NCBI GenBank assembly: GCA_964620475.1
Contig: CAZUJN010000001.1
Location: 83,497-147,496, forward strand
Direction of reading: 5' to 3'
DNA: 64,000 nucleotides
From: an uncultured Candidatus Saccharibacteria bacterium
Lineage (GTDB): Bacteria; Patescibacteriota; Minisyncoccia; Phycocordibacterales; CAIZLB01
Within the stretch, counting starts at the first letter, position 1. Every line of letters begins with the position of its first letter. Under the pieces are notes generated by a model. The model saw only the letters and a program-made list of their open reading frames with translations. It had not been told where the DNA came from and did not search any database. The translations under genes and the position numbers were made by a program. Positions 23,668-62,064 of the stretch are shown here, one piece after another.

Positions 23668-24255
23668 ATGACAATAATTTCTTTACTTATACTTATATTA
23701 TCGATAGTGGCTCATGAAGTTGCACATGGTATAGCCGCTTTATGGCAAGGAGATAGAACAGCAAAAGAGGCAGGCAGACTTACTTTGAATCCTATGGCAC
23801 ATATAGATCCTATAGGATCTGTGATATTACCACTAACTATGTTTTTTATAGGTTCTCCTTTTTTATTCGGTTGGGCAAAACCCGTACCAGTTAATCCTTA
23901 TTATTTTAGAAATGTAAGATACGGTGAGACTTTAGTTGCATTTGCTGGTCCATTAGTGAATCTTATATTCGTAGCTGTATTTACCTTGTTGATAAATTTT
24001 GGAAATTTCGGACAAAACTTTATTGATGTAGCTTCAATGATTGTTTTGATAAATCTAGTTTTAGCTTTCTTTAATTTGATGCCAATACCTCCACTTGATG
24101 GTTCTAAAATATTTTTTACACTTATACCACAAAGGTTTTATAAACTTAGACAATCATTAGAATCAAAATCGTTTATATTTTGGTTTATTGCAATAATAAT
24201 TATTTGGCAATTTTTCTATCCTTTAGTTTGGTGGTTGTATGGCGTGTTGGTGTAG
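23668..24255 (+). CDS. site-2 protease family (peptidase M50) membrane metalloprotease
   Basis: 195 aa. HEVAHG (HExxH) in TM1 and a second motif LNLVLAFFNLMPIPPLDG. Confidence 0.7.
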   Translation: MTIISLLILILSIVAHEVAHGIAALWQGDRTAKEAGRLTLNPMAHIDPIGSVILPLTMFFIGSPFLFGWAKPVPVNPYYFRNVRYGETLVAFAGPLVNLIFVAVFTLLINFGNFGQNFIDVASMIVLINLVLAFFNLMPIPPLDGSKIFFTLIPQRFYKLRQSLESKSFIFWFIAIIIIWQFFYPLVWWLYGVLV

Positions 24256-26286: not shown

Positions 26287-27081
26287 ATGACAAACAACAC
26301 TTTAAATATAGATCAAATATGCCAGGTTTTAGATATTAAACCTGTTACGAAACGCATATTATTATCATTGATAGAGAAAGGTAATATGACCGTAGCTGAT
26401 ATATCATCCCATCTTAAAATACCCAAATCTACCATATATGACTCATTACAAGAGCTTATGGATAAAAGCATTGTCATAGAATATATGGATGGTAGGGCAA
26501 AGTCTTTTGGTATATCTAATCTGTCTCATTTAGAAGAGATATATAAAAAACAGATAAATAAACTTGATAATGCTCATAAATCACTGATTTCATATATACA
26601 AGAAAATTTAAATAAAAGTGACAATACAGGAGTGTCTCGTCCAAAGATTAAATTTTATTATGGCGTAGATGGTATGAAGCAGGCTTTTCGCGATACGCCC
26701 TGGGTCGAAGAACATAAAGAGACATATCTTATGTGGCCTATGGTTGAAATGGTTCAATTGTTCGGAGAAGATTTTTTGATACATCATGGAACTCCTAGAT
26801 TGCACTATAAAATAAACATGTATGTGGTTCAAAAGGATAGCGATAGAAATAATGTACCAGAGTCTTTTAAATGGAAAAAATATGATGAAAATGAGAGTTT
26901 AACTCATATAAAATATGCTCCTAAAAATATGGATTGGTCTATAAGTTATTGGATATACAGGGACCAAGTATTGTTTGCTGGATCAGGAGAGGAGAAATAT
27001 GCTTTTGTGGTTTATAGTAGAGAGTTTGCGCAACTAATGAAGCTTATGTGGCAACAGATGTATAGTGTGGCAGAGGAATAA
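26287..27081 (+). CDS. TrmB-family winged-helix transcriptional regulator
   Basis: 264 aa. N-terminal HTH (ILLSLIEKGNMTVADISSHLKIPKSTIYDSLQEL). Divergent from the ThyX-like gene. Confidence 0.5.
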   Translation: MTNNTLNIDQICQVLDIKPVTKRILLSLIEKGNMTVADISSHLKIPKSTIYDSLQELMDKSIVIEYMDGRAKSFGISNLSHLEEIYKKQINKLDNAHKSLISYIQENLNKSDNTGVSRPKIKFYYGVDGMKQAFRDTPWVEEHKETYLMWPMVEMVQLFGEDFLIHHGTPRLHYKINMYVVQKDSDRNNVPESFKWKKYDENESLTHIKYAPKNMDWSISYWIYRDQVLFAGSGEEKYAFVVYSREFAQLMKLMWQQMYSVAEE

Positions 27082-45603: not shown

Positions 45604-45672
45604 GGTTTTGTTATGTTAGGTTTAACTCAAATACAATACATAAAATATCTAGGTGTGTAAATAGGTGAGATT

Positions 45673-45754
45673 TGACCATTACATGGTCAGTACACCTTTG
45701 CTATTTTTTCAAATTCTGCGAATTTTCGAAAATAAGGTAAAGCTTTTCGAATCT
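45673..45754 (+). repeat. hairpin-containing repeat, copy A (family A/B/C)
   Basis: tgaccattacatggtcagtacacc...gaattctgcgaatt...aagcttttcgaatct. About 80% identical to copy B. Confidence 0.5.
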
Positions 45755-46410: not shown

Positions 46411-46431
46411 GCGGAGGAGGTGAGATTCGAA
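46411..46431 (-). mobile_element. 21-nt duplicate of the tRNA-Ser 3' end (att-type direct repeat; left boundary of the integrated element)
   Basis: gcggaggaggtgagattcgaa is identical to 61977-61997 inside the tRNA-Ser gene. Confidence 0.6.
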
Positions 46432-46524
46432 GCTTACAGCTTCAGTACCACAAGGGCATTTCTCAGAAATAAAGGAGAACCTTTTCGAATCTCTCGAGGA
46501 AGTGCATAGTTGCACTTCCTCTCC
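46429..46524 (+). repeat. hairpin-containing repeat, copy C (tRNA-Ser-like remnant) of family A/B/C
   Basis: gaagcttacagcttcagtacca...ccttttcgaatctc-tcgaggaagtgcatagttgcacttcc-tctcc. Its 3' block matches copy B. Confidence 0.5.
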
Positions 46525-46695
46525 TTACAAAAACAAAAACACCCTTTCGAATGTTTTGTTTTTTGTGGAGGATCGTAGAGTCTATTCGAACTTATTATAT
46601 TAAAAACAGCGCATAACTATGTAAAGTTAATACGCTGTGGTTGAAAGTTTTAAGAGAGTTGAATTCTACGGTTACTTCACCGAGTGGGTATACCA

Positions 46696-47270: not shown

Positions 47271-48107
47271 TTGTTCGTAAAAATTGACAAAATTAAATCA
47301 AAAATATACACTATCTACATGAATAACCAAGATCTAAAAACCAAAGTTGAGCGAGCAGGCTTAACTGATAAAGAATCGGCCACATATAGTGCACTTATTG
47401 AGCTGGGCGGAGCTTTTCCTTCCAAAATAGCCGAATATACAAAACTTAATCGAAGTACTGTATATAAGGTATTATTAGATCTTTCTGTAAAAGGGTTGGT
47501 TAGTGAGATAAAGAAGAAAAATAAGTTGTATTATCAGATTGAAAACCCTACTCGACTTGTAAGATATGCAAAAGATAAGGTAAAGATAGCAGAAGAACAG
47601 TTGGAGTACATGTCTAAACTGGTTCCTCAAATAGAAGGATTATATTCATTACTTTCAAATAAGCCAAAGATTTCATATTTTGAAAATATAGACGGCATCC
47701 TTTCTATATATGAGGATCAAATATCGGGAACCAAGAAATATGAAATGTTAGCATTTTCTAATACAACAGAAATAGAGAATGTTTTTCCGAAAGATTTTTT
47801 CACCAGATATAGAAGAGCAAAAGAGAAAATAGGTATTACAACAAGGGGTCTTATTCCTGATACTGAAAGGGATGAATCATTTGTAAATAGAATGTATGAC
47901 GGATATAAAAAAGAGGTTATTCCTCAGGTAAAATATGTTCCAGCAAAAGATTTTCCATTTAAAGGTGAGATTACTATTTATGGAGATAAAAAAGTTTCTA
48001 TTGTAAATCTAAATAAAGAATATTTTACTGGTCTAATTATTGAAGACCAAACAATTCATAACATGATGAGAATGATATTTGAATTGTCTTGGAAAGGGGT
48101 TAAGTAG
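47271..48107 (+). CDS. TrmB-family winged-helix transcriptional regulator (paralogue-like of 26287..27081)
   Basis: 278 aa. N-terminal HTH ESATYSALIELGGAFPSKIAEYTKLNRSTVYKVLLDL. Confidence 0.5.
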   Translation: MFVKIDKIKSKIYTIYMNNQDLKTKVERAGLTDKESATYSALIELGGAFPSKIAEYTKLNRSTVYKVLLDLSVKGLVSEIKKKNKLYYQIENPTRLVRYAKDKVKIAEEQLEYMSKLVPQIEGLYSLLSNKPKISYFENIDGILSIYEDQISGTKKYEMLAFSNTTEIENVFPKDFFTRYRRAKEKIGITTRGLIPDTERDESFVNRMYDGYKKEVIPQVKYVPAKDFPFKGEITIYGDKKVSIVNLNKEYFTGLIIEDQTIHNMMRMIFELSWKGVK

Positions 48108-48118
48108 GGAAATAGATT

Positions 48119-48235
48119 CGGTCCTTACAGGATCAGTACACCTTTTCTCGTTTTATCGAATTCTACGAATTCTCAAAACATAGAAAAGCTTTTCGAATCT
48201 CCCACGGAAGCAAAGCGGTTTGCTTCCTCTTCTCC
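48119..48235 (+). repeat. hairpin-containing repeat, copy B (family A/B/C), followed by a terminator
   Basis: cggtccttacaggatcagtacacc...gaattctacgaattc...aagcttttcgaatctc-ccacggaagcaaagcggtttgcttcc-tcttctcc. Confidence 0.5.
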
Positions 48236-48446: not shown

Positions 48447-49628
48447 ATGATTGAGGATTTAAACAAACACCTAACAGATCAAGAATTCTTCACCTATGCG
48501 AAGTTTTTTGACATGGTTATAAACAAAAAGAACCTCGCTGATGAAGACCAAAGAGAAATTGGTGTATATCAGTTTTCTATTGGCGAAGATGAGTCATATA
48601 GACGATTTCGTAGACTTTTCAATTTCATCAAATACCAAGACTTGCCAGTCAAAATCTCTGAATCAAGATACAACAAACTGGAAGAAATGATTGGTTCGTA
48701 CGCAAAAGGAAAAGACGCGAAAGGTGCAGGAATGCCGACAAAAGAAGATCTAGATACTATTTGCGAAAAGATAAATAACGGTAAGCCTATAAAATTTTCA
48801 GAGACAGGAATGCTGTCATGGGCATGGTTTGAGGTGTATGACTCCACTCATTTTTTGCCACATCAATACGAGATTTCTAATGAAGTAAAATCGAATGTTA
48901 AAAAAGAATTTGATACATATCTAGAGAATCTCATAAACGGCAAGCTCTCTATCGCTAAGGATAACTACTACAAGTTCAACATCCTAAAAGAAGCGTTCAT
49001 CCAAATGATTGAGCGAAAGGGTGTTTTGAAATTATTTGGCAAAAACTTTGTCATCAAAGAAGAATTAAACAATGAAGGAAACCTAAAGAGTGACCCTAAC
49101 TTTTGCATTGTGCAAACGGTATATGCCTTACAACACCTAGGATACCTGACGGTGAACAATATCTGGAGAGATGACGAGTACAAAGAACAATACAGTAGTT
49201 CGAGCAATATCCGATATTTCATATCAATCAATGTGACAATTGAGGATAGTTTCATTTCTGAAATAAACGACAGATACAAGAAAGCGAATCCAAAAAACGT
49301 GATCGAAGGATTCGACAAACCGAAAGGAATCTTAAAATTCGCAGGTGAGGAAATAATCCTTTCACTCAAAGGTAAAGAAACGGATGCATCCCTCCTTATG
49401 AATACCTTGTACAAAAAAGAAGATACGGAATGGATCTATAACGACGAGATTTTTGAGGATTGGAAGTTTAACCAAGCTGACATCCTGAAAAGTCCTAAAA
49501 ACAAGATATATTTCGCTGCCAAAAAGATAAATGAAAAGGTAGCGATGAAGACCAAAATCGAGGATTTTATTGAATTTACCACTGAAAAAGCAAGGATAAA
49601 TCCTCGCTACAACAAAGTTGACGAATAA
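48447..49628 (+). CDS. hypothetical protein (island cargo)
   Basis: 393 aa, GC about 40%, no motif recognised. Confidence 0.4.
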   Translation: MIEDLNKHLTDQEFFTYAKFFDMVINKKNLADEDQREIGVYQFSIGEDESYRRFRRLFNFIKYQDLPVKISESRYNKLEEMIGSYAKGKDAKGAGMPTKEDLDTICEKINNGKPIKFSETGMLSWAWFEVYDSTHFLPHQYEISNEVKSNVKKEFDTYLENLINGKLSIAKDNYYKFNILKEAFIQMIERKGVLKLFGKNFVIKEELNNEGNLKSDPNFCIVQTVYALQHLGYLTVNNIWRDDEYKEQYSSSSNIRYFISINVTIEDSFISEINDRYKKANPKNVIEGFDKPKGILKFAGEEIILSLKGKETDASLLMNTLYKKEDTEWIYNDEIFEDWKFNQADILKSPKNKIYFAAKKINEKVAMKTKIEDFIEFTTEKARINPRYNKVDE

Positions 49629-49719: not shown

Positions 49720-51015
49720 ATGCAAAAGCAAAAACTCATATGGTCAGTTACAACCCGCAAAGTGAGTGATCTGACAAAAAACGGATACAATCCGAGAAAG
49801 ATAAGCGAGAGCGAAAAGAGAGACTTGGAAAAGTCTATTAAGGAATTCGGGACGGTCGTTCCTGTAATCCTTAATATTGGTTTGAGAGCCAATGTCATTA
49901 TCGGCGGTGAGCAAAGAGTAAAGATATATGCTGATCTCGGTATGGAAGAGATCGAGTGTATGGTACCCTCTCGGGAACTGACACCTAAAGAAGAAAAAGA
50001 GCTTAACCTCCGTTTGAACAAAAACACAGGGTCATGGGATGAAAACCTTCTCAAGGAATTCGATATGGACATGCTCCTTGGTGTAGGTTTTGGCGATGAA
50101 GAATTGCAAAGCCTGTTTGATGATGTAGATATGGTCGAGGATGACTTTGATATTGAAAAAGCTGTCAAAGAAACCATAACTGCTAAAGTGAAGACTGGAG
50201 AAATCTGGGAACTCGGAAAGCATAGGTTGCTTGTTGGGGATTCTACTGATGTCACATCCGTACAAAAACTTATGGATGGAAAACTTGCAGACATCGTGTA
50301 CTGCGATCCGCCATACAACATTGGACTCGACTATTCAAAAGGTGTCGGCAACAAAGAAAAATATCAAGGGTCATATTCCGCAAAGGATGATTCGAAAAAG
50401 GATACTGACTATCTCGATTTCATAGATAAAAGTATTGATGTGGCAAAGACCGTAGCCAAGAAGGATTCCCACTTCTTCTACTGGTGCGACTCTTCGTATA
50501 TTTGGATCACACAGAATCTATACCAAAAGCACGGTATAGATAGTAAACGTGTCTGCATGTGGATCAAGAATAATCAGAATCCCACTCACAAGATTGCGTT
50601 CAATAAAGTATATGAACCATGCGTATACGGAACTATCGGCAAGCCATATCTCAATTCAGCAATGAACAATGTTAATGAGATTCTCAATCAGGAAGTGACC
50701 ACCGGCAATCAGGTACATGATGAGATTCTAGACATGATAGATATTTGGATTGAGAAAAGAGACAACGCTCAAACATATCAACATCCAACTCAAAAGCCTG
50801 TAACGCTCAATGAAAAACCACTCAAAAGATGCAGTGCTCCGCTTCATATTGTGTATAGCGGATTTGCGGGTAGCGGTAGTGATTTGATTGCTTGCGAAGA
50901 ATTAAATCGTGTTTGGTATGGAGTCGAAAAGGATTTGATTTTCGCAACCATCGTTATAGACCGATGGGAAAAGTTTACTGGCCTTAAAGCAAAGAAAATA
51001 TATGAAAATAACTAA
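49720..51015 (+). CDS. ParB/Srx-like nuclease domain fused to an N6-adenine/N4-cytosine DNA methyltransferase (DPPY class)
   Basis: 431 aa. N-terminal NPRKISE...IIGGEQRV (ParB-like). Methyltransferase motif IV VYCDPPYNIG and motif I GFAGSGSDLIACEELNR. Confidence 0.85.
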   Translation: MQKQKLIWSVTTRKVSDLTKNGYNPRKISESEKRDLEKSIKEFGTVVPVILNIGLRANVIIGGEQRVKIYADLGMEEIECMVPSRELTPKEEKELNLRLNKNTGSWDENLLKEFDMDMLLGVGFGDEELQSLFDDVDMVEDDFDIEKAVKETITAKVKTGEIWELGKHRLLVGDSTDVTSVQKLMDGKLADIVYCDPPYNIGLDYSKGVGNKEKYQGSYSAKDDSKKDTDYLDFIDKSIDVAKTVAKKDSHFFYWCDSSYIWITQNLYQKHGIDSKRVCMWIKNNQNPTHKIAFNKVYEPCVYGTIGKPYLNSAMNNVNEILNQEVTTGNQVHDEILDMIDIWIEKRDNAQTYQHPTQKPVTLNEKPLKRCSAPLHIVYSGFAGSGSDLIACEELNRVWYGVEKDLIFATIVIDRWEKFTGLKAKKIYENN

Positions 51016-51751
51016 AGGAGATATTTTCAAGATCGGCAATCATATTATCGGTTGTGGTGATTCTACCGACAGAGAATTTGTAGCTAAAGTAATCGGGAAG
51101 AACAAGATACGAGCCATCATTTCTGACCCACCTTATGGAGTTGCATATGTTGAAAACAAGAAAGGCTTTGCGAAACTTGGTGTTAAGGACGAGAAAATAA
51201 TTGTCGGCGATCATTTGCAGAGCGAATCTGAATATGAAGATTTCACCAGAAAGTATCTTGGTGCCGTTATTCCATATCTCGATGACTACAATGCATGCTA
51301 CATATTTAACGCCGATCCGATGTTTCCATCTCTCCGTAAAGGCATGAAAGATGCGGGTTTCTATTACAGCCAGATGATTATTTGGATTAAGAATCAACCT
51401 GTCATGAGTAGAAAAGACTACCTTTCGCAATATGAACTAATTGCATATGGATGGTTTGGCAAGCACAAAATGGAAAGATCTAAATCAAAGAATGTTATTT
51501 ATCACCCACGACCAAACAGATCAAGACTTCACCCTACACAAAAGCCGATAGGGCTACTTAGAAAGATAATTCCAGACGCAACATGCGTCGGTGACTTTAT
51601 CTATGATCCGTTTCTCGGAAGTGGATCAACTGCTATTGCATCGGAACATTTAGGTCGAAAATGTATCGGTATAGAAATAGATGAAGTGTATGTTTCCGTC
51701 GTTCTACAAAGACTTGAAAAGCTAACTGGTCAAAAACCAATAAAGATATAA
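51002..51751 (+). CDS. N6-adenine/N4-cytosine DNA methyltransferase (DPPY class)
   Basis: 249 aa. ISDPPYGVAY and DPFLGSGSTAIASEHLGRKCIGIEID. Confidence 0.85.
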   Translation: MKITKGDIFKIGNHIIGCGDSTDREFVAKVIGKNKIRAIISDPPYGVAYVENKKGFAKLGVKDEKIIVGDHLQSESEYEDFTRKYLGAVIPYLDDYNACYIFNADPMFPSLRKGMKDAGFYYSQMIIWIKNQPVMSRKDYLSQYELIAYGWFGKHKMERSKSKNVIYHPRPNRSRLHPTQKPIGLLRKIIPDATCVGDFIYDPFLGSGSTAIASEHLGRKCIGIEIDEVYVSVVLQRLEKLTGQKPIKI

Positions 51752-52328: not shown

Positions 52329-53813
52329 ATGAAAAATCTAGCAAACCTATTAAGAAAAGCAGACATCACTCCAAGAGAAAGAATGATAACCTTGGTGCAA
52401 AATAGTGTTTATAAAGAAAAGGACGGCAAGAGTATTCTTTCCGAATCGGAGATATATTCTTTGACGGAGGGGTGGAAGCCGAAAACTTCTCAGGAAGTAA
52501 GGGAGTATAACAAGTACTTGGAACTGTCTAAACTAGAAGCTTCGATGAGATTAGATGCTCAAATGTTTGCGTGTAGATCCGAGAATCTGCTACTACGAAG
52601 TCATATACTGATTGAGGGAATAAAAAGTGATATAGGAAAAACTCATGATGCAATTTTAGATAAATATGTATCAAAAGAAGATGCCCTGAACTTTGTCATA
52701 CAAAATACTTATCTCGACTATTCAACGCTTGTTCACATACTCACTTTCAACAACCTACCGAAAGATATTCAGGATGATTTGATTATGTTAGATGAGTATG
52801 TAGCACATGATAAAAAGTATTTGGAAGATGAGGTCTTTCTTTATGAATTGTTCAAAGATTCAAGTACTCTAAATACAAAAGATAAAAATATCTTGATAGA
52901 CCGTATCTATTCGTGTATGTATCACGATGGTTTTAGAAAGATTAAAAATGGAACAGAAAAAGATGGTTTCTTGCCACTCCATTTCTTTGCTGAGTTACCA
53001 ATGGATGCTGTGCTGAAAAAATGGGCAGAATACAGCCAGACAGATATCGAGGGGAAAGATAATGGTTATATACTAGATAAATTTGAGGAGTACGCAAAAA
53101 GTAGAGGTAAAACCATGGAGATATTTGTAAAGGAAACACTATCGAAGTGGATAGATGAAGGTTTGTTTGTGTCGGAATATACCCCAGTATTTTTTAGTAA
53201 TAAACACAATACATGGAATGGTGATACTAAATTTATACACAAAGAGATTTTTACCAAATGGCACGAAGAATTACAGAAGACCAAAACATCGATAGACAAA
53301 ATGGGTGCTAATGGAGATTTGGTTGTGGAGCAATTTGATAAGGAAATTTTTGGAACCACAGAGAAGGTTCAGATAGTTACTGGGGAAAGTTTGTATAGAT
53401 GCAAATCTGATATTGACTTTGTGAATGAATACAAGGAGCAGGTGACTGTACTCCTACCTATCGCAGGGACGTGTTTGTTTATGAAGAAATATAATAAGCC
53501 GTTAGATAATCTTGAAACACTAAAATGTTTTTACGAATTATCTAAAACATTTTCGGATGTATTTGAAATTGATATGTCAGATAAATATGATGATTTTGTG
53601 AGTTCGTTTGAACAGGAGATCAAACTCATCAATCATTCAATATCCATTGCATTAGATAATGTGAGTGGTTTTATATATACAAAAATGAACAAAAAATACC
53701 CAATAGAGATCATCGAGAATAATTTTACTTTTGATATTGATACAGAATCAGAAAATAAAGCCGATGGTATTATTGAAAGTTATAAAGGAGCATTTCAGAA
53801 AATTGGGTTTTAA
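52329..53813 (+). CDS. hypothetical protein (494 aa), island cargo
   Basis: No Walker, nuclease or HTH motif recognised. Last gene of the plus-strand methyltransferase operon. Confidence 0.4.
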   Translation: MKNLANLLRKADITPRERMITLVQNSVYKEKDGKSILSESEIYSLTEGWKPKTSQEVREYNKYLELSKLEASMRLDAQMFACRSENLLLRSHILIEGIKSDIGKTHDAILDKYVSKEDALNFVIQNTYLDYSTLVHILTFNNLPKDIQDDLIMLDEYVAHDKKYLEDEVFLYELFKDSSTLNTKDKNILIDRIYSCMYHDGFRKIKNGTEKDGFLPLHFFAELPMDAVLKKWAEYSQTDIEGKDNGYILDKFEEYAKSRGKTMEIFVKETLSKWIDEGLFVSEYTPVFFSNKHNTWNGDTKFIHKEIFTKWHEELQKTKTSIDKMGANGDLVVEQFDKEIFGTTEKVQIVTGESLYRCKSDIDFVNEYKEQVTVLLPIAGTCLFMKKYNKPLDNLETLKCFYELSKTFSDVFEIDMSDKYDDFVSSFEQEIKLINHSISIALDNVSGFIYTKMNKKYPIEIIENNFTFDIDTESENKADGIIESYKGAFQKIGF

Positions 53814-53815
53814 GA

Positions 53816-54568
53816 TTATTTACCCTTCCAGTGCACCGCTCGATTTTCGATAAACATCATTATTTTGTTGAGAGCAAAACCAATCACACCAGTCATGAGG
53901 ATGGCGGCATACATATCTGCTGTTTGATAGACTAATTGTGCATCAATAATGCGTTTTCCAAGCCCAGCATTGGTCCCAATAAACATTTCAGTCACGATGA
54001 CAATTATAAGTGAGAGTGAAATTGCCACACGAAAACCTGAAAAGATTTGTGGTAATGCTTCTGGAAAAATCACTTTGCGAAAAAGTTCGAATCCTTTTAC
54101 TTTCATTGTTTTAGCGACACGCACTCGTAATTCCTTGCCGAGATGTACCCCATACATGGAGTTTATGAGAATGACCAATCCTGCACCCCAAGCAGTGACA
54201 GCAAATTTAGCCTCATCGCCGATTCCAAAGACAAGGAGAAACAGTGGGAAAAGCGCAGTCGTTGGAATACCTCGAAAAAACTCGACAGTAAATTCAAGAG
54301 CGTTATAGACTTTGCTTGAGTAACCCATCAGAAGACCAAGTGGGACTCCGATAATAGTTGCAAAAATAAAACCAACAAGAACACGATACAGGGTGTGTCC
54401 GATGTCGCTTAACATTGATCCATTCAGTAGTGAATCAATGAGGTGATTGGAAACATCATATGGAGATGCCAAGAATAAAGGACTGACAAGTTTGAAATAT
54501 GAAATGATCCACCAGAGGCAGAGTAAAATTGTCGGTATGAGTATGTAATATAATTTCTTATTTTTCAT
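53816..54568 (-). CDS. ABC transporter permease (NitT/TauT, SsuC/TauC/ThiX-like)
   Basis: Likely start MKNKKLYYILIP. Six TM helices and an EAA-like loop. Confidence 0.75.
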   Translation of the reverse strand: MKNKKLYYILIPTILLCLWWIISYFKLVSPLFLASPYDVSNHLIDSLLNGSMLSDIGHTLYRVLVGFIFATIIGVPLGLLMGYSSKVYNALEFTVEFFRGIPTTALFPLFLLVFGIGDEAKFAVTAWGAGLVILINSMYGVHLGKELRVRVAKTMKVKGFELFRKVIFPEALPQIFSGFRVAISLSLIIVIVTEMFIGTNAGLGKRIIDAQLVYQTADMYAAILMTGVIGFALNKIMMFIENRAVHWKGK

Positions 54569-55310
54569 ATTCGAAGGTATTAAGAATTGCGTTTCGAAGT
54601 TCAGTAAATTCAGGACTTGAAAGCATATCAAGTGTTCGAGGACGAGGGAGTTTTACTTCAAAAATCTTTTTAATTTTTGCTGGTCGTGGAGACAGAACAA
54701 TCACTCTATCAGCGAGAAATATAGCTTCGTCAATATCATGACTTACAAACAAAGTTGTTATTTTTTTCTCTTGCCAGATATCAAGAAGCTCCAACTCCAT
54801 TTTTCTAGTAGTTGAATAATCAAGAGCAGAAAATGGCTCATCCATGATCAGAATGTCAGGATCATAAGCAATTGAACGACATATAGAAACAAGTTGACGT
54901 TGTCCCCCAGAGAGTTCATAGACAAATTTATCCTTTGAATTAAGCAAACCCACTTTATTTAAAAGATGCTCGGCAATTTTGTATTGTTTTTCTTTATCTA
55001 CTTTTGCTATTTCAAGCGGAAATATAATATTTTCTAAAACGGTTCTCCAAGGAAAAAGACTTTCGTTGTAATTCTGAAAAACAAAACCTACTTGTGCATC
55101 CTTTGGGTTTTTACCGCTAACCATGACTTCACCTGATTCAGGAGTTTCAATACCAGCGACGATATTAAGTAGCGTTGTTTTACCTGATCCATTCGGACCA
55201 AAAACAGTTACAAATTCTCCTTTATTAACTTCAAGATTAATACCATCAATAACCCTGGTGTCGCCAGAATCTTTTTTAAAGGTTTTAGTTATTCCAACAA
55301 GTGAAATCAT
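54558..55310 (-). CDS. ABC transporter ATP-binding protein
   Basis: 250 aa. Walker A GPNGSGKTTLL, signature LSGGQRQ, Walker B ILIMDEPFSALD. Confidence 0.85.
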   Translation of the reverse strand: MISLVGITKTFKKDSGDTRVIDGINLEVNKGEFVTVFGPNGSGKTTLLNIVAGIETPESGEVMVSGKNPKDAQVGFVFQNYNESLFPWRTVLENIIFPLEIAKVDKEKQYKIAEHLLNKVGLLNSKDKFVYELSGGQRQLVSICRSIAYDPDILIMDEPFSALDYSTTRKMELELLDIWQEKKITTLFVSHDIDEAIFLADRVIVLSPRPAKIKKIFEVKLPRPRTLDMLSSPEFTELRNAILNTFEYEK

Positions 55311-55316
55311 TACCGT

Positions 55317-56273
55317 TTATTTGTAATATGCGTTAGTTAAATCTGGTTTTGATTTGAACTCTCCAGAAGCCACTAAAATATCAAGCAACTTATTGGTTAA
55401 AGTTTTATCAATCTGTTGTGAATTTCTAAAATATGTCATTCCGAGAACGTCGACAACTTTCTGGTCTAGCTTAAAGATTGTTTTTGTCATACCCCTAACA
55501 TCTTTGTCGTTGGTACGTAGATAATCAAAGGCCTTATCAAAAGCATTAACTACTTTTTTTGCTTCACGTGGATACTTATTTACAAACTGAGTGCTTACAA
55601 GTGCTACCCCCAATGGGCTGTGATCTAACTGTTCAGAATAAACAGAACCATAGACCTTCCTTATTCCACCGCTTGTAAGTGCGATAGATATTGTTGGTTC
55701 ATATGTGAATAAAGCATCAATCGATCCTGCGGTAAGTGCTGTGAGATGTTGTGGTGGTGGTAATTGCACAAACTGAATAGTAGAAGAATCAATGCCTTTA
55801 TCTTTTAGAAAAAGTTTAAACATATTTGAAGCACTTGTACCTGGGAATACTCCGATTTTTTTACCTTTCAAATCCTCAAGGGTCCTAATAGGAGAGCTTT
55901 CCTTTACCAAAAGAGAATCAAATGGAACGTCACTTGTAATGTCAGTTAAAGCGATAATTTTCATTTTTCCAGGATCAACCATTTCTGCGTTTAAATATGG
56001 AAGTATAGAAATTTCGGGAGTAACATCTATATCACCTCGTGCAAGTGCATCAACAATTTGATTTGAGGTTTGAAGTAGTGTGGTTTGAACAGTAATGCCC
56101 TGATCCTCAAAAAACTTTTTTTGCTGAGCAATCTCTAAAGGAAGTTGGCTTGCTGTAATCGGTAAATACCCGATTTTTACAACATAATCAGACGGTTTAT
56201 TAGATCTTAAAAAAAATACGCTGAGTATAACTAAAATTATAAGTGTTCCGATGATTAAAAATGGTTTTTTCAT
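55317..56273 (-). CDS. ABC substrate-binding protein (NMT1/THI5-like, SsuA/ThiY-like)
   Basis: Likely start MKKPFLIIGTLIIL (signal anchor), then a periplasmic-binding-protein type 2 fold. Confidence 0.65.
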   Translation of the reverse strand: MKKPFLIIGTLIILVILSVFFLRSNKPSDYVVKIGYLPITASQLPLEIAQQKKFFEDQGITVQTTLLQTSNQIVDALARGDIDVTPEISILPYLNAEMVDPGKMKIIALTDITSDVPFDSLLVKESSPIRTLEDLKGKKIGVFPGTSASNMFKLFLKDKGIDSSTIQFVQLPPPQHLTALTAGSIDALFTYEPTISIALTSGGIRKVYGSVYSEQLDHSPLGVALVSTQFVNKYPREAKKVVNAFDKAFDYLRTNDKDVRGMTKTIFKLDQKVVDVLGMTYFRNSQQIDKTLTNKLLDILVASGEFKSKPDLTNAYYK

Positions 56274-56422
56274 AGTAATAAAAATTAAGTTATTAATAAA
56301 ATTTCCTGTTTTAAAAGATGGTCTCATTGTACCATAAAAAATGACTTTTCCATAATTAAAATACGCCCAAAATAAATTTAAGCGTCATAACCCCTATTCA
56401 AATTACTAACTATTAAAAATAG

Positions 56423-57121
56423 TTACAAAACATTGTTCTCCTTACCCAAAACCACCCGATTAAGATACATGAAAGGAATGTTTATTAGTCCGACTAACCA
56501 TTTGACAGCAGTTTGTCCAATTATAAGGGGCATTATTGGTAAGGCTCCCAAGAAAGCTATTGGAATAAATATTAGACTATCCAGAAGTAGTGCTGGTATC
56601 GAACTGAAGACATTTCTTGCCCATAAATGTTTGCCTTTAGTAAATTTTTTGAACCAAGCATACACATATGCATCAAAATTCTCAGTTATAAGGAAGGCAA
56701 TCCAGCTAGCAATGGTAATCCTTGGTACTAGATTGAAAATTTGTTCCCATGATCCCTGCATTGTCCAAAATGGTGCCGCAGGCAATTTTACACCAAGCCA
56801 AAAGAAAAACACCATTGCGATTTGAGATACAAAAGCAATGAGAATCATTTTTGATACTTCCTTTCTACCAAATTTTTCATTTACAATATCTGTAAAAAGA
56901 TACGTGATAGAGAAAACAAGTACTCCACTCGGACCAAAGAATGTGCTGAATCCCAGATCGAAAGCAGAGATCTTGGCGGCTAAGACTTGGGCTACAAGAA
57001 CAAACGTGACGTATAATCCAATAAGTAAATCCGATCGGTTATATTTTCGAGCATACAAACTCCCGAGAAGTGTAAAACTAGTGATACCTACAATCCAGAT
57101 AATTAATAAGTATAAGCTCAT
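56423..57121 (-). CDS. yhhQ: YhhQ/COG1738 (VUT family) transporter, a queuosine-precursor (preQ0/preQ1) transporter family
   Basis: 232 aa, about six TM helices. YLFTDIVNEKFGRKEVSKMI matches the conserved YhhQ TDxxNExYG motif. Confidence 0.65.
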   Translation of the reverse strand: MSLYLLIIWIVGITSFTLLGSLYARKYNRSDLLIGLYVTFVLVAQVLAAKISAFDLGFSTFFGPSGVLVFSITYLFTDIVNEKFGRKEVSKMILIAFVSQIAMVFFFWLGVKLPAAPFWTMQGSWEQIFNLVPRITIASWIAFLITENFDAYVYAWFKKFTKGKHLWARNVFSSIPALLLDSLIFIPIAFLGALPIMPLIIGQTAVKWLVGLINIPFMYLNRVVLGKENNVL

Positions 57122-57128
57122 ATATTAT

Positions 57129-57848
57129 TTATAATAACTTAATTCTATAATTTATCCAAATAAAACCCCGCTCGTTTCTCTCTTGTTTTGTTTCTATCTT
57201 GTATCCGTACTCGGTCATCATTTTTTCTAGAACTTCAAAATCATATCGGGGTTGAGAAGTTCCTGCACTCTGTAAATTTGCATGGGGTAAGGTAATAATA
57301 CCGTCATTATGTAAAAAATCTTTTGCATCATTAAGAAATCTTTTATGTACAGTGAAATTGTTATCATAGAGCGCCCGATCAATTAAGTCGTTTCCACCAT
57401 CAAAATTGACAAAGGGTAAATTTGCGATAATCAGATGGTATTTTTTATCAGATGGAAATTTTGAAAAAAGATCAGAATAGAAGGTTGATATTTTATTTTG
57501 TAAACCGTTTAATGAAACATTGTGTTCAGTGCATTTAATTGCTTCCATGTTAATGTCGGCAGAGTCAACGTGCTTTGCGCCTGCAAGAGAAGCAACTATT
57601 GACTGTACACCTGTACCACAACCTATATCTGCAACTTCTAAATCACTTAAATTTCCAAATGCTTCAAAAACAGATTTTGAACTGGGGGTATAATCGGGTG
57701 GAAAGACGCTGGGAAAAACATCGATAGGAACAATCTTGTCTCCAATATTCAAGCTTATTCTGTAAATTCCATCCTTACTTTTATTTTTCAAAAAAGAAAG
57801 AAATTCTTGAGTATGTTTTGGATTGATTTTTTCTATGTGTGTAATCAT
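57129..57848 (-). CDS. SAM-dependent methyltransferase, small-domain (RsmC/RlmG/PrmC-like) type
   Basis: 239 aa. VADIGCGTGVQSIVASLAG (motif I), HLIIANLPFV (NPPY-like motif IV), preceded by VFPPDYTPSS. Confidence 0.55.
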   Translation of the reverse strand: MITHIEKINPKHTQEFLSFLKNKSKDGIYRISLNIGDKIVPIDVFPSVFPPDYTPSSKSVFEAFGNLSDLEVADIGCGTGVQSIVASLAGAKHVDSADINMEAIKCTEHNVSLNGLQNKISTFYSDLFSKFPSDKKYHLIIANLPFVNFDGGNDLIDRALYDNNFTVHKRFLNDAKDFLHNDGIITLPHANLQSAGTSQPRYDFEVLEKMMTEYGYKIETKQERNERGFIWINYRIKLL

Positions 57849-57853
57849 ATTTT

Positions 57854-58174
57854 TTAATCCTCAATCCAAACCTGTGCTGGACGATGTGCATCAGAATGTT
57901 TTATGTCAATAAATATTTTTAGATATTTAGGTTTAATAGATTCTTTTACTTGCAGATAAATTTGATGGGCCAACTCTTCAGCAGTAATTTTATTTTTAGC
58001 AATTTCATTTACAGCTCGCTCAGCATCGACATATTCAAGAACTTTCTTCTTGGGATAGTACTCAACGATAACATCACCAGAAAACTCTTTATCCGTAACC
58101 GAACAAATTGCCTTAAACGGTAAAAATATCTTTGTGCCACTGATCTTGAAATTTAATGAGATTGTTTTAATCAT
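57854..58174 (-). CDS. T-fold protein, QueF-like
   Basis: 106 aa. LPFKAICSVTDKEFSGDVIVEYYPKKKVLE aligns with QueF [30 protein letters not shown] (Cys conserved). The QueF E(S/L)K(S/A)hK(L/Y)(F/Y/W) motif is not preserved. C-terminal LKIFIDIKHSDAHRPAQVWIE is a T-fold-type strand. Confidence 0.4.
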   Translation of the reverse strand: MIKTISLNFKISGTKIFLPFKAICSVTDKEFSGDVIVEYYPKKKVLEYVDAERAVNEIAKNKITAEELAHQIYLQVKESIKPKYLKIFIDIKHSDAHRPAQVWIED

Positions 58175-58175
58175 T

Positions 58176-59081
58176 TTATTGTAAGTTATGTTTGATAATA
58201 AAAATTCTAAAATTTGCAGGGATACTCCTTACTTTTGTCATATTGAGTTCATGTTTTTGTGCAAATTCGGACATTTTTTTGTATATAAAATCTCTATCCT
58301 CAGAACTTAAACCTGCACTGAACACATTATACGTTCCTTCTTTTATTGAATAAAGAAGGTCATTGAGTTGATATTTTCTTTTCCATGATAGTGCTTTATT
58401 TGAAATAATCTTGAACAAAGTAAATTTTTTATCTGCACAGATATATTCCACAGCTTTTGTAGCATCGCCTGCGGGATACTTTCTTTGAACAAAAGGCTTT
58501 TTGAGATTAACTCTTAAAGAAAAATAATATTCAAAAAGAAGCTCTAGGTCCTTATCTATAATTGGGCTATTAAAAATTTGTTCAATCCTATCTTCTATCT
58601 GACTATTTTCATCGCCAGTAATAATATAACCACCAGGCTTAGATAAAGATTTTATCTTATTCAAAGCTTTTTCTGGAGAATTAAAACAATGAAGAATTGC
58701 TTTGAAGTGCACAATACTATACTGTCCTTTAAATTTAAGAACGTCTCCCAAAATTATTCGGGTTTTATCTTTAACATATTTAGACACAGCCTCATACATT
58801 TTTTCACTATAATCTATTCCATAAATCTCAGCCTTTGAATTTAAATTCAAAAGGGGTATTAAAAACAAGCCAGACCCAAAGCCAACATCTAGAATGTTGT
58901 CACCGTCTCGTGTTAAACCAATGGCTTGAGATGCATATTCTTTCTGTATAGATTTTGGGAATAATCGCAAAATCTCGTACTGTTGTTGGTTTATTTTTTT
59001 GTAGGTATCCCGCGTAGACATAAAAGTACTGTACCATAAAATTATCCTTTTGTGTAGCCATTTAAATATTTTTTCTATCAA
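58176..59081 (-). CDS. class I SAM-dependent methyltransferase
   Basis: 301 aa. ILDVGFGSGLF (motif I) and GGYIITGDE. Confidence 0.55.
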   Translation of the reverse strand: MIEKIFKWLHKRIILWYSTFMSTRDTYKKINQQQYEILRLFPKSIQKEYASQAIGLTRDGDNILDVGFGSGLFLIPLLNLNSKAEIYGIDYSEKMYEAVSKYVKDKTRIILGDVLKFKGQYSIVHFKAILHCFNSPEKALNKIKSLSKPGGYIITGDENSQIEDRIEQIFNSPIIDKDLELLFEYYFSLRVNLKKPFVQRKYPAGDATKAVEYICADKKFTLFKIISNKALSWKRKYQLNDLLYSIKEGTYNVFSAGLSSEDRDFIYKKMSEFAQKHELNMTKVRSIPANFRIFIIKHNLQ

Positions 59082-59147: not shown

Positions 59148-60473
59148 ATGAAAACAACAGCACCAACAGGCTATGAAATGGCCCAAACAACACAATTAGT
59201 AGCAAGTTTGAAATACTGCCTTTATGCACGTAAATCGACAGAAAGCGAGGAACGGCAAGTCCTCTCTATAGACAGTCAGATTAAGGAGATGTTACAACTG
59301 GCAGAACGAGAGAATCTGGATATCGTGACAATGAAGCGAGAAAGTCACTCGGCAAAAGAAACTGGACAAAGACCAGTATTCAACGAGATAATCGATGAAT
59401 TAAGAGCTGACAAATACAACGCAATCCTCACATGGGCACCCGACCGTATCTCAAGAAACGCAGGAGACTTAGGAAAAATCGTTGACTTGATGGATGCGGG
59501 TAAACTACACCAAATCAGGACATTCGGACAGACATTTTCAAACAATCCGAATGAAAAATTTCTTCTAATGATTCTTGGATCACAAGCAAAGCTTGAGAAC
59601 GACAACCGAGGGATTAATGTAAAACGAGGACTGCGAACAAGAGTAGAGATGGGATTGTGGCCAGGAGTTGCACCTCTTGGATATTTGAATCAAAGGGATA
59701 TCGACAAGAAGTGTCAGCTCATAGTCGATCAATTGAGAGCACCACTGGTAAAAAAAATATTTGAAAAAGTGGCATATGAAAAATTAAGCGGAAGAAAGAT
59801 ATATAATTGGCTTCGATTTGAAGCCAATTTCTATACCAGAGGAAACAAACCTCTGACACTCGCAGGAGTATATAGGATCATAGAAAGCCACTTCTACTAT
59901 GGGATGTTTGAATATCCAAAAGACAGCGGTAACTGGTATACAGGAAAACATGAACCATTGATTACCAAAGAATTATTTGATCAGGCTCAAGCCCAAATGA
60001 AGCGTGACAACATACAACGAGAGAATAAAGAATTTGCATTCACTAAATTATTTACATGCGGATACTGTAGTAGTGGAATATCAGCAGAAGAAAAATGGAA
60101 GCAACTCAAGGATGGAACGCATGCAAAATATGTATACTACTCATGTGCGAGATCGAGAGACAGGAACTGTAAGAACAAATATATACGAGAGGAGGATTTA
60201 ATTATCGAGATGTTAAAAATACTGGACAAGGTAAATATAAACGAGCTAGGCATGAGGCAAAAGCTTGAGGACGAGATAGCAAGATTCAACATATTCCAAA
60301 GGTCGGTGCTCGGAAGTACTGACAAGGTTGGCAACAGAAAAGATACTGATATACGAAACTATGCGAAGTATATTCTCAAAGAGGGAGCGGTTACTGAAAA
60401 GCGAGAATTGCTAGCGAACTTGAGATCGAGAATAGCATATAAAGACAAAGAGCTGACATTAATCGAAGAATAG
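59148..60473 (+). CDS. large serine recombinase (resolvase N-domain, recombinase domain and zinc ribbon)
   Basis: 441 aa. YARKSTESEERQVLSIDSQ (Ser nucleophile), GLWPGVAPLGY, CGYCSSG...C. Confidence 0.8.
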   Translation: MKTTAPTGYEMAQTTQLVASLKYCLYARKSTESEERQVLSIDSQIKEMLQLAERENLDIVTMKRESHSAKETGQRPVFNEIIDELRADKYNAILTWAPDRISRNAGDLGKIVDLMDAGKLHQIRTFGQTFSNNPNEKFLLMILGSQAKLENDNRGINVKRGLRTRVEMGLWPGVAPLGYLNQRDIDKKCQLIVDQLRAPLVKKIFEKVAYEKLSGRKIYNWLRFEANFYTRGNKPLTLAGVYRIIESHFYYGMFEYPKDSGNWYTGKHEPLITKELFDQAQAQMKRDNIQRENKEFAFTKLFTCGYCSSGISAEEKWKQLKDGTHAKYVYYSCARSRDRNCKNKYIREEDLIIEMLKILDKVNINELGMRQKLEDEIARFNIFQRSVLGSTDKVGNRKDTDIRNYAKYILKEGAVTEKRELLANLRSRIAYKDKELTLIEE

Positions 60474-60482
60474 ATTTTAATA

Positions 60483-61871
60483 CTACTTGTACTGTGCGTG
60501 AATGTTTTTAACATAATCATCCGCAATTTGTAGTATTTCACTGAAAGTAAGTATTTCGATGTTTTGTAGAGAATTGCGAAGTTTTGTGAAGTCTCTTTTG
60601 AGACTTTTTTCTTTTATCTTATTTAGCTTACTTTTTGTCAGTTTGTGATCTGAGGAGATTATAATAATTCCCCTTGGGTGGTAAAGGTTTTCTTCTTCAG
60701 TCATATTGGTAATCTTATTTTCATCAGAATTATTTTGAAATCGTTTTTGAACGATAGCGTCCATGTAATTCATGGTCTGAATTACAGCCCTGCTTAATTC
60801 AGAAGAAAAACTAAAATTCTTATGAGAGGAATCCCAAGTCACAGCATTTTTTAAATGTGTCTTAATCTCAATAATATCGAGACCGTTGTAGTGATTAATT
60901 CCAATAAAATCTGGGTATTTTTTGTCGCCATCAATGTCTTTGAATTCAATTTTTGGATATATTCTTTTATACGAGAAAACAAGATAAAGAAGATATTTTT
61001 CAAAATACTTTTGCCAGAGATTTTCCAGCTGTTTTATTTCAGAGTTGTTATCTGTAATTTTTGAGATTATTTTCTTCGCTTTCTCTGTCTCCATATCAGT
61101 AGTTCCCAGAGTTAGAATTTCTCTACCTAAAGCAATAATATCTTTAAGTTTTTCCTTGATAAAATACTCATCTAATGCTCTTAAAAAATCAGGGGAAAAT
61201 ACTTCGTCTTTAATTAGCTTATCCGTAAAATACTCAAGATTTTTTATATCTTCTATATCTAGAAAGTTATCATAATCTTTCTTTTTGTTCTTATTTTTAA
61301 GATTAAATCGTTCAACCATGAAGGAGAAATCTCCTTTGCCAATAGTTGTAACTTCTTTGGGTGCTTTACTGGTATATTTTAGCTTAAGCTTGTTTATCAA
61401 AAAAGTTTCAATACGATCCCTACTAGATTTACCTTTCTTAAAAACATCGTATGAATCACTTAAAATATCAATCAAAATTGGTTCAGGTATTTGAAGCATC
61501 TTTTCATTGGTTTTTCGTAGAATCTTTTTGCCAGTATTTAAAACTTTAATCTTTGAAAATGTGTCATCAATACCTAGAATAAGTTTTATGTATTGAAACC
61601 ACGGGATATTATAATCACTACCATATCTGGTTCTTAATACATTATCTATGTTTACCTTATCTGAAATAATCAATGACTGTCTATTGTTTGTTTTTTCATA
61701 ACTGTTTTGTTGGCGATTGTAATAATGAAAATCAATAAGCACATCTTTCTTATTAAAAATAACCACATCACCAGAAGGGCATAAAATTTTATTGTCTTCA
61801 AAAATCATCCCAGGCCAATTTAGAGATTGAAAAAATTCGACTATTTTCTCCTTTTGTGTTTTTTCTTCCAT
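60483..61871 (-). CDS. Shedu/DUF4263-like PD-(D/E)xK nuclease-fold protein (candidate antiphage defence)
   Basis: 462 aa. C-terminal YPDFIGINHYNGLDIIEIKTHLKN is a PD...(D/E)xK motif. Located between the recombinase and tRNA-Ser. Confidence 0.4.
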   Translation of the reverse strand: MEEKTQKEKIVEFFQSLNWPGMIFEDNKILCPSGDVVIFNKKDVLIDFHYYNRQQNSYEKTNNRQSLIISDKVNIDNVLRTRYGSDYNIPWFQYIKLILGIDDTFSKIKVLNTGKKILRKTNEKMLQIPEPILIDILSDSYDVFKKGKSSRDRIETFLINKLKLKYTSKAPKEVTTIGKGDFSFMVERFNLKNKNKKKDYDNFLDIEDIKNLEYFTDKLIKDEVFSPDFLRALDEYFIKEKLKDIIALGREILTLGTTDMETEKAKKIISKITDNNSEIKQLENLWQKYFEKYLLYLVFSYKRIYPKIEFKDIDGDKKYPDFIGINHYNGLDIIEIKTHLKNAVTWDSSHKNFSFSSELSRAVIQTMNYMDAIVQKRFQNNSDENKITNMTEEENLYHPRGIIIISSDHKLTKSKLNKIKEKSLKRDFTKLRNSLQNIEILTFSEILQIADDYVKNIHAQYK

Positions 61872-61974: not shown

Positions 61975-62064
61975 TGGCGGAGGAGGTGAGATTCGAACTC
62001 ACGGGACCCGTAAAGGCCCTCCTGTTTTCAAGACAGGTGCAATCGACCTCTCTGCCACTCCTCC
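61975..62064 (-). tRNA. tRNA-Ser (anticodon TGA) with encoded CCA
   Basis: 90 nt. Acceptor ggaggag/ctcctcc, anticodon arm cctgt-cTTGAaa-acagg, long variable arm, T arm gtgag-ttcgaat-ctcac. Confidence 0.85.

Follow-up and report, generated by a model that had tools for sequence, protein, structure and literature searches.

The stretch analysed here, called the window throughout, comprises 64,000 nt of contig CAZUJN010000001.1 from an uncultured Candidatus Saccharibacteria bacterium. Its backbone is a low-GC Patescibacteria chromosome with genes for type IV pili, NusA, trigger factor, PGK, RecJ, ComEC, EF-G and RuvX, and beside a tRNA-Ser gene it carries an island in which seven minus-strand genes are clustered (Table 1). 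These encode two methyltransferases dependent on S-adenosylmethionine (SAM), named MT1 and MT2, a 106-aa tunnel-fold (T-fold) protein, a YhhQ-type transporter, and, side by side, the binding protein, ATPase and permease of an ABC importer of the NitT/TauT family. The 106-aa protein belongs to an undescribed family, here named mini-QueF, and the cluster may serve the uptake and tailoring of a 7-deazaguanine base.

Open reading frames (ORFs) for all seven genes were found where the initial annotation had placed them, with gaps of 1, 5, 7 and 6 nt in the ORF listing. The two remaining distances depend on internal Met starts: the spacer between the YhhQ and binding-protein genes is exactly 149 nt if the latter begins at 56273, and the permease and ATPase genes overlap by exactly 11 nt (a gap of -11 nt) if the permease begins at 54568. 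Both starts are those used by the gene calls in a near-identical contig (L006), where the permease is 250 aa long. Since the identical gene order returns in independent samples, the cluster is not a chance arrangement. The proposal that all seven genes form a single operon holds only in part. The tight packing is real, but the 149-nt spacer contains a terminator-like hairpin, so that the ABC genes may form a second transcription unit and the cluster may consist of four plus three genes.

Table 1. The seven-gene cluster and the island that carries it, in order of position in the window (Pfam scores and E-values are those of the best match of each cluster ORF)
Feature	Position	Strand	Remarks
Left 21-nt copy of the tRNA-Ser 3' end (attL-like)	46411..46431		left island boundary
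TrmB-like helix-turn-helix regulator	47271-48107	+	inside the island
Two overlapping DNA N6/N4 methyltransferase genes	49720..51751	+	first fused to a ParB_N domain
ABC permease	53816..54568	-	BPD_transp_1 3e-23; ORF reaches 54631, likely start Met22 at 54568
ABC ATPase	54558..55310	-	ABC_tran 3e-32
NMT1/SsuA-type substrate-binding protein of the NitT/TauT ABC importer	55317..56273	-	NMT1_2 1e-21; ORF reaches 56327, likely start MKKPF (second Met)
Terminator-like hairpin, spacer between YhhQ and binding-protein genes	56385-56363	-	consensus match only
YhhQ/QPTR (COG1738, Vut_1) queuosine-precursor transporter	56423..57121	-	232 aa; Vut_1 1.5e-44
MT2, MTS/HemK-PrmA-type methyltransferase	57129..57848	-	239 aa; MTS 8e-16
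Mini-QueF-like T-fold protein	57854..58174	-	106 aa, 12 kDa; GTP_cyclohydroI 29.7 bits
MT1, class I SAM-dependent methyltransferase	58176..59081	-	301 aa; Methyltransf_31/11 2e-13; TTG start, Met at 59018 a possible later start
Large serine recombinase	59148..60473	+	Resolvase, Recombinase and Zn_ribbon_recom domains
Shedu-type (SduA_C) nuclease	60483..61871	-	PF14082, 67 bits; between the serine recombinase and tRNA-Ser
tRNA-Ser(UGA)	61975..62064	-	3' end 61977-61997 is the right-hand repeat copy

The 106-aa protein had been described as QueF-like, aligning with the catalytic-Cys region of QueF and lacking its NADPH motif, and this description is borne out. Its C24 aligns with Cys21 of QueF-L, equivalent to Cys55 of Bacillus subtilis QueF (the thioimide-forming Cys), and E66 aligns with the Glu common to QueF, QueF-L and FolE, which recognises the 2-amino-4-oxo-pyrimidine ring. 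Both residues are invariant in the 45 members of the family alignment as well as in 41 distant relatives; they belong to 14 invariant positions of the alignment, which also include F31, G33, E47 and H97, the last being nearly invariant in the 41. A regular expression for the strict NADPH motif, E(S/L)K(S/A)hK(L/Y)(Y/F/W), matched none of 101 sequences (0/45, 0/41 and 0/15), and the helix equivalent to this motif is acidic (LEYVDxE in the family, LEFxSxExW in the relatives). The best sequence match in the PDB is an archaeal QueF-L (5jyx), with an E-value of 7.6e-5 for the single sequence (phmmer) and 2.1e-7 for the profile of the 45-member family; FolE comes next (2.4e-4), and bimodular QueF has an E-value of only 0.42. 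In an AlphaFold2 model (pLDDT 97.6) the whole chain superposes on the QueF-L thioimide structure, the top Foldseek match, with a TM-score of 0.86-0.88 and a root-mean-square deviation (rmsd) of 1.5 A. The modelled chain also fits the C-terminal domain of FolE, and a fold search of BFVD returned FolE-type matches only.

None of the named families accommodates this protein. Its match to Pfam GTP_cyclohydroI is barely over the gathering score and covers only positions 77-141 of 179, Pfam QueF scores 20.4 bits against a threshold of 27.3 and TIGR03139 23 against 86.9, and all NCBIfam models of QueF and FolE stay far under their cut-offs. The zinc/His site of FolE is reduced to the equivalent of Cys110, with CSVT in place of CEHH and Asp95 at the Cys181 position; having lost the zinc ligands and the N-terminal domain, the protein cannot be a GTP cyclohydrolase. 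It might have classified as FolB or QueD, but searches of Pfam and NCBIfam gave no match to FolB or PTPS (QueD), and PTPS matched one of the 41 distant relatives at an E-value of 0.007. Nor can the protein be classed as the suggested QueF-L-type amidinotransferase, as the catalytic Asp (Asp28 of QueF-L) aligns with Phe31, which is Phe in 45 of 45 members; in the distant relatives this position, Cys+7, is filled by F, Y, I, V or T, and by Asp in one of 41. Lacking the NADPH motif, the catalytic Asp and the zinc ligands of FolE, the protein is neither QueF, QueF-L, FolE, QueD nor FolB, and we place it in the mini-QueF family, which has a QueF-L-like fold and an active-site signature of its own. 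The public names of its relatives, 'QueF' (JGI) and 'GTP cyclohydrolase I' (NCBI), are likely over-annotations. The median pI of the family is 6.3, with no consistent positive charge, which argues weakly for a free base over tRNA as the substrate.

An exhaustive profile search yielded 17 representative clusters at E <= 1e-10 and about 226 small proteins (roughly 105-120 aa) at E <= 1e-3. Close relatives come only from Patescibacteria-type metagenome-assembled genomes, some with clearly unreliable taxonomic labels, and from metagenomes; a pattern scan of IMG/VR gave no match to the Patescibacteria family. The 41 distant relatives, which come from this set of small proteins, show weak Pfam matches, to QueF in 29 cases and to FolE in 21, and belong to no named NCBIfam family. 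A literature search on queuosine in Patescibacteria, or the candidate phyla radiation, found nothing relevant, and the mini-QueF/YhhQ context goes unmentioned in a 2026 survey of the QueC family.

For the analysis of gene neighbourhoods, ORFs were called in all fetched loci (L numbers), the loci were dereplicated at 90% identity of the T-fold protein, and neighbours within 6 kb were clustered; the counts given here cover the 46 dereplicated Patescibacteria loci that have 2 kb or more of flanking sequence. The most frequent neighbour is YhhQ/Vut_1, found in 40 of the 46 (39 on the same strand) at a median gap of 6.5 nt. The second is a QueC-like gene (26/46), whose products match TIGR00364 over its full length with 111-133 bits against a cut-off of 150. 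Further neighbours are GT2 glycosyltransferases (19/46), NodU-type carbamoyltransferases and KsgA-like methyltransferases (18/46 each), a BpsA_C-like aminopropyltransferase-fold protein encoded directly upstream (17/46), PIG-L deacetylases (14/46), AdoMet decarboxylase (6/46), and MT2-like and MT1-like methyltransferases (4/46 each). In Shapirobacteria the YhhQ, QueC-like, carbamoyltransferase and GT2 genes overlap, and these overlaps, together with the tight T-fold/YhhQ pair, are good evidence for coupling. The remoter housekeeping neighbours may represent conserved synteny only; the synteny of KsgA-like, SHMT and polyamine genes, possibly a conserved chromosomal block of Microgenomates, was not counted as functional evidence.

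Core genomes of Microgenomates (L003 10001-14172, L008, L023, L026, L030, L034, L052 and others) carry the T-fold gene and YhhQ followed by overlapping QueC-like, NodU-type and GT2 genes, often with BpsA_C-like and AdoMet decarboxylase genes before them and a PIG-L deacetylase gene alongside. This gene set may constitute a larger pathway or only conserved synteny.

The transporter matches the models of its family over their length and above curated cut-offs, in agreement with its first assignment to YhhQ: it scores 152.5 bits with Vut_1 and 113.8 with TIGR00697, the queuosine-precursor-transporter equivalog (cut-off 50.95), the latter match spanning model positions 7-198 of 201 and residues 38-225 of 232. 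YhhQ is known to transport preQ0 and preQ1 (PMC5372724). Among the ABC proteins, the binding protein matches NMT1_2 (1.4e-21) and, below the cut-off of 163.5, SsuA_fam (130.8 bits), and has SsuA, TauA and NrtA as PDB relatives; the nearest models to the ATPase are SaoA, NtrCD and TauB, all under their cut-offs. The importer is coupled to the cassette in one subclade only. In three loci of a second neighbourhood (L011, L014 and L017) the ABC system is tied to the cassette by an additional, paralogous binding-protein gene that precedes the T-fold gene by 12 nt.

Both methyltransferases had been considered coupled to the T-fold and YhhQ genes, and each of them indeed recurs beside this pair in other lineages. 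MT1 is a generic class I methyltransferase (Pfam Methyltransf_31/11/25, 1e-11 to 2e-13; phrog_4752, 3e-9). In the four dereplicated loci that have an MT1-like gene it abuts or overlaps the start of the T-fold gene, with overlapping genes for example in L031 (43% identity). MT2 represents a Patescibacteria-wide family (40-70% identity) in which SAM motif I is canonical, motif IV has the unusual form N-L-P-[I/F/M], and many polar residues are invariant. Among solved structures the best fold match is the carbamoyl N-methyltransferase 9l4q, with PrmA, HemK2/N6AMT1 and MJ0882 next; these relatives methylate amide, carbamoyl or exocyclic nitrogen. The order T-fold, MT2, YhhQ is common to the window, L011, L014 and L017; in L037 it is MT2, T-fold, YhhQ, and in L015 YhhQ is followed by MT2 with no T-fold gene.

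Two possible counterparts of these enzymes were rejected. DpdM, the dPreQ1 methylase that makes mdPreQ1 in phages, is a DUF3109 metalloprotein with a CxxxCxxCC metal site (PMC10516641), whereas MT1 and MT2 have the Rossmann fold of class I methyltransferases. The methyltransferase of the phage locus L100 described below resembles MT1 in pairwise comparison only at the SAM-binding motif, and the two are analogous neighbours and not orthologues. As a separate observation, L039 (1-8280) has an ABC importer operon with four or five Peripla_BP_6 binding-protein genes in which genes for an MT2 homologue (46% identity) and for a methyltransferase resembling UbiE are embedded, a second case of the MT2 family travelling with uptake systems.

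The cluster had been said to ride on a mobile element beside DNA methyltransferases, and the surroundings agree with this. An exact 21-nt direct repeat of the 3' end of tRNA-Ser(UGA) (46411-46431 = 61977-61997) encloses 15.6 kb that are richer in GC (0.33-0.39) than the rest of the window (about 0.30) and that include a serine recombinase and two N6/N4 methyltransferases. The exact tRNA repeat, the recombinase and the GC shift mark the segment as an integrative island of the tRNA-targeting type. The island was also found in another sample (L006), with both of the proteins that flank the DNA methyltransferase genes and match neither Pfam nor PHROG (393 aa, 48447-49628, and 494 aa, 52329-53813). 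No restriction enzyme was recognised near the two DNA methyltransferase genes; with the Shedu-type nuclease the island also carries a candidate anti-phage defence.

The same seven genes occur in a second neighbourhood unrelated to the island (L011, L014 and L017), flanked on one side by genes for ALAD and NAD synthase and on the other by a Trp-repressor-like gene, a phosphoribosyltransferase gene and a phage-type integrase gene. Identity to the window is 86-94% for YhhQ and the ABC proteins and only 66-69% for MT2. The presence of the seven genes in two neighbourhoods implies that the module moves between contexts. The T-fold/YhhQ pair as such is not intrinsically bound to mobile elements: across Patescibacteria it forms a conserved cassette of the core genome, usually accompanied by a QueC-like gene, and the island carries a variant of this cassette. 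One core copy lies on the 1.02-Mb contig JBAQFJ010000001.1.

Distant relatives of mini-QueF are encoded by phages. One of them, P0329, belongs to a distant subgroup and is about 24% identical to the 106-aa protein; its gene is on a phage contig of 60 kb that IMG/VR also contains (a phage of this type is IMGVR_UViG_3300017989_000015). The gene order there (L100/L102, 5931-8965) is DpdA-type transglycosylase (phrog_887, 1e-46), class I methyltransferase, mini-QueF and YhhQ. In L104 (5247-9021) a DpdA-like gene, accompanied by a QueC-like gene, is followed by a myo-inositol-1-phosphate-synthase-like gene, mini-QueF and YhhQ, in L105 (5116-8980) a DpdA-like gene is followed by a weakly GT1-like gene, mini-QueF and YhhQ, and the short viral contig L103 (1045-2038) holds the mini-QueF/YhhQ pair alone. 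A DpdA-like gene stands 0-2.3 kb upstream in all three long phage contigs with the pair, and terminase and portal genes are close to the cassettes, downstream in the case of L100. A PDB sequence search with the DpdA-like protein of L100 returned no match. Judged by gene content, the phage cassette looks like part of a DpdA-based DNA modification system using an imported precursor. These occurrences make the cassette much older and wider than this island. Published phage surveys mention YhhQ homologues, in which they saw no pattern, and describe QueFs in which the NADPH motif is kept (PMC6884629, PMC10516641); the mini-QueF/YhhQ cassette of phages and Patescibacteria appears to be previously undescribed.

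Two fusion proteins were noted among the relatives. In P0277 the N-terminal domain is DpdA-like, with the motif DSGAF, and the C-terminal domain is that of a genuine FolE. In P0252 a phage-type mini-QueF is preceded by a region whose His-rich motif resembles that of QueD; a PDB sequence search with this fusion protein gave no match, leaving the QueD-like part unconfirmed.

The interpretation we favour, at about an even chance of being correct, is that the locus is a mobile uptake-and-tailoring cassette for a 7-deazaguanine of the preQ0 type, combining non-reductive Cys chemistry with N-methylation. YhhQ would import the base, a precursor of queuosine or archaeosine, and in this subclade a second, high-affinity route would probably be provided by the NitT/TauT-type ABC importer, whose binding protein is of the NMT1 type. 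In the T-fold enzyme, Glu66 would hold the 2-amino-4-oxo-pyrimidine face while Cys24 attacks the C7 nitrile to form a covalent thioimide, as in QueF and QueF-L; the latter two share the Cys-thioimide chemistry, with the Asp as general acid/base of both, and differ only in the nucleophile (PMC5485725). Because the T-fold enzyme has no NADPH site, the thioimide would be resolved not by reduction but by a nitrogen or oxygen nucleophile, giving an amidine- or amide-type product instead of preQ1. MT2 and MT1 would methylate this product, in line with the likeness of the MT2 fold to enzymes that methylate amide, carbamoyl or exocyclic nitrogens. The finished base would enter nucleic acid through a transglycosylase encoded elsewhere, for which the host TGT, with tRNA as its target, is the likeliest candidate. 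Of this scheme, the analysis itself establishes the families, the conserved residues, the predicted fold, the coupling of the genes and the structure of the island, while the base taken up, the thioimide step, its non-reductive outcome, the methyl acceptor and the destination are inferred.

A wider generalisation, which we consider unlikely, would make mini-QueF a new catalytic branch of the tunnel fold that converts salvaged preQ0 through a thioimide into amidine- or amide-type 7-deazaguanines, to be decorated by interchangeable neighbours and installed by enzymes of the TGT/DpdA type. The decorators would be the class I and HemK-like methyltransferases in the window; a BpsA-like aminopropyltransferase with AdoMet decarboxylase, glycosyltransferases and a carbamoyltransferase in other Patescibacteria; and methyltransferase, glycosyltransferase-like or inositol-phosphate-synthase-like enzymes in phages. 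If true, ultra-small bacteria and phages would carry a series of hypermodified 7-deazaguanines in their RNA or DNA, with an N-methylated one in the case of the island.

Several observations weigh against the uptake-and-tailoring proposal. The residue that serves QueF and QueF-L as general acid/base is an invariant Phe in mini-QueF, so that the thioimide chemistry may be impaired or differ. Behind the Cys the loop has the FolE pattern P-F-x-G, and the Pfam score is higher for FolE than for QueF. The specificity of COG1738 transporters varies and may extend to other purines (PMC5372724), and the binding protein carries no specific ligand signature, the SsuA, TauA, NrtA and Sao models all remaining below their cut-offs. 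MT2 homologues also occur away from YhhQ and T-fold genes (L016, L038, where the gene is alone, and L039). At Rfam gathering thresholds or E <= 1 neither a preQ1 nor any other riboswitch was found, whether ahead of the operon or within the spacer. Finally, the remark in the initial annotation that no TGT or DpdA is visible in the window stands after tblastn, phmmer, a hidden Markov model (HMM) built from three DpdA sequences, and a scan for the motif DSG[AG][FY]; TGT, QueA and DpdA were found neither in the 64-kb window nor within 10 kb of any Patescibacteria locus, and none turned up in about 100 related loci. A 386-aa protein of L052/L054 that matched the DpdA HMM (E 0.001) was set aside as QueC-like, its match resting on a low-information C-terminal stretch.

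In the simplest alternative, the locus would serve plain queuosine-precursor salvage: the 106-aa protein would be a minimal functional QueF making preQ1 for a bacterial TGT, and the methyltransferases would act elsewhere. It would be the most direct way to fill the pathway gap in organisms with YhhQ and QueC-like genes, JGI pipelines already label these proteins QueF, and phage proteins first predicted to be QueF-L proved to give dPreQ1 (PMC6884629). Those dPreQ1-making phage QueFs, however, keep the NADPH motif (PMC10516641), which is missing from all 101 sequences examined here along with the catalytic Asp, and the equivalent helix is acidic. Every QueF model scores far under its cut-off, and the reading would not account for the way in which tailoring genes, MT1-like and MT2-like ones among them, are repeatedly inserted into the cassette. 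On balance we regard a minimal QueF as unlikely.

The DpdA-like genes near mini-QueF and YhhQ in all three long phage contigs point to another explanation, in which the cassette supplies a 7-deazaguanine, possibly methylated, that an unrecognised transglycosylase puts into DNA, working with the two DNA methyltransferases of the island as self-marking or anti-restriction cargo. The Shedu nuclease and the 393-aa and 494-aa proteins of no known family would suit such cargo, and methylated dPreQ1 is known from phage DNA (PMC10516641). Yet the whole island lies within the window, in which no homologue of DpdA or TGT was found, the pattern scan of IMG/VR did not find the Patescibacteria family, and the core-genome copies stand among housekeeping genes. 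The phage relatives beside DpdA keep this alternative alive and do not prove it for the island, where we judge it improbable.

A similarly low probability attaches to the idea that the substrate is some other 2-amino-4-oxo heterocycle (a guanine derivative or pterin) or a pyrimidine vitamin precursor, salvaged and methylated in hosts without de novo purine synthesis. The heterogeneity of COG1738 and its possible transport of other purines (PMC5372724), the FolE-like hairpin after the Cys with the higher Pfam score for FolE, the membership of the binding protein in the NMT1/THI5 clan, and the MT2 homologue in a different ABC importer operon would all fit it. It leaves without a role, in known FolE-type substrate chemistry once the zinc site is lost, the Cys at the position of the QueF nucleophile; moreover, the QueC-like gene, of a family best known for but not limited to 7-deazaguanine chemistry, is the second commonest neighbour (26/46), and phage relatives combine the cassette with DpdA and QueC. 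That the four upstream and three ABC genes are unrelated neighbours with housekeeping methyltransferases is very improbable: the terminator-like hairpin, the confinement of the ABC link to one subclade and the solitary MT2 homologues of other genomes would allow it, but the genes inside each block are 1-7 nt apart or overlap, all seven hold their order in a second unrelated context with an extra binding-protein gene adjoining the T-fold gene, and MT1-like and MT2-like genes recur around the pair in differing orders.

Some further features of the region were recorded. An element of about 90-120 nt is present in three copies (45668-45754, 46423-46525 and 48114-48233) with the inverted boxes AGATTCGAA...TTCGAATCT at its ends; these are the same as the T-arm box of tRNA-Ser, and the second copy immediately adjoins the left att-like repeat. 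The copies may be left over from earlier integrations, serve as sites of recombination or form a small family of palindromic repeats. In a distant Patescibacterium (L016, 7384-11728) the order PilM, tRNA-binding protein, RuvX and tRNA-Ser(UGA) matches that of the window (34588-62064), and an MT2 homologue directly follows tRNA-Ser; there tRNA-Arg(GCG) is 3.8 kb away, compared with 27 kb in the window, which marks the interval as a variable, insertion-prone region. A second TrmB-like helix-turn-helix regulator (26287-27081, plus strand) lies in a GC-richer block at 26-32 kb that also holds EF-G. On the minus strand at 24223-26175 the window encodes a 650-aa protein whose ThyX (Thy1) domain is confined to the C-terminal third; its first 370 residues match no family.

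The 7-deazaguanines (queuosine, archaeosine, dPreQ0, dG+ and mdPreQ1) connect decoding by tRNA to the conflict between phage and host, and further derivatives and enzymes of this group are still emerging. The general idea of 7-deazaguanine salvage is known; what is new here is an enzyme family and its cassette. If active, mini-QueF would define a route to 7-deazaguanine derivatives that relies on salvage and needs no NADPH, in organisms unable to make purines, and the mini-QueF/YhhQ pair would be a simple two-gene marker for finding more modification systems.

Among known systems, mini-QueF is closest to Pyrobaculum calidifontis QueF-L (PDB 5jyx/5k0p), with which it shares a single tunnel-fold domain of about 105-110 aa (TM-score 0.87, rmsd 1.5 A), the thioimide Cys, the base-binding Glu and the absence of an NADPH motif. 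It differs from QueF-L in having Phe for the Cys+7 Asp, in lacking the His of the H-E pair, and in being bacterial (Patescibacteria) instead of crenarchaeal and encoded beside a base transporter instead of arcTGT. With QueF it has in common the superfamily, the position of the catalytic Cys and the Glu, and both cluster with YhhQ in preQ0-salvaging bacteria; unlike QueF, it carries acidic residues in place of the two Lys, has neither the NADPH motif, the Asp nor an N-terminal extension, and scores far below the QueF cut-offs. The C-terminal domain of FolE shares the hairpin pattern C-x5-P-F-x-G-x5-Y-x-P, and Pfam FolE passes its gathering score on a partial match, whereas mini-QueF is half as long and lacks the N-terminal domain, His113, Cys181 and the catalytic His112.

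As a pathway, the cassette resembles the YhhQ/QPTR salvage of preQ0 and preQ1 in E. coli and others (PMC5372724, PMC11130926) in its transporter family and in the clustering of the transporter with 7-deazaguanine enzymes. It departs from that salvage in having mini-QueF as the partner instead of QueF, inserted methyltransferases, an attached ABC importer dependent on a substrate-binding protein, and no preQ1 riboswitch at the Rfam thresholds used. Phage clusters for 7-deazaguanine DNA modification combine DpdA with FolE/QueD/QueE/QueC, QueF, Gat-QueC, ArcS2 and DpdL/M/N (PMC6884629, PMC10516641). The window differs from them in the absence of DpdA and in its class I methyltransferases, which DpdM is not, and the published phage QueFs keep the NADPH motif that mini-QueF lacks. 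Nevertheless, distant mini-QueF/YhhQ cassettes stand directly downstream of DpdA-like genes, once together with a QueC-like gene, and in these phage systems the tailoring of preQ-type bases by methylation or formylation is already established.

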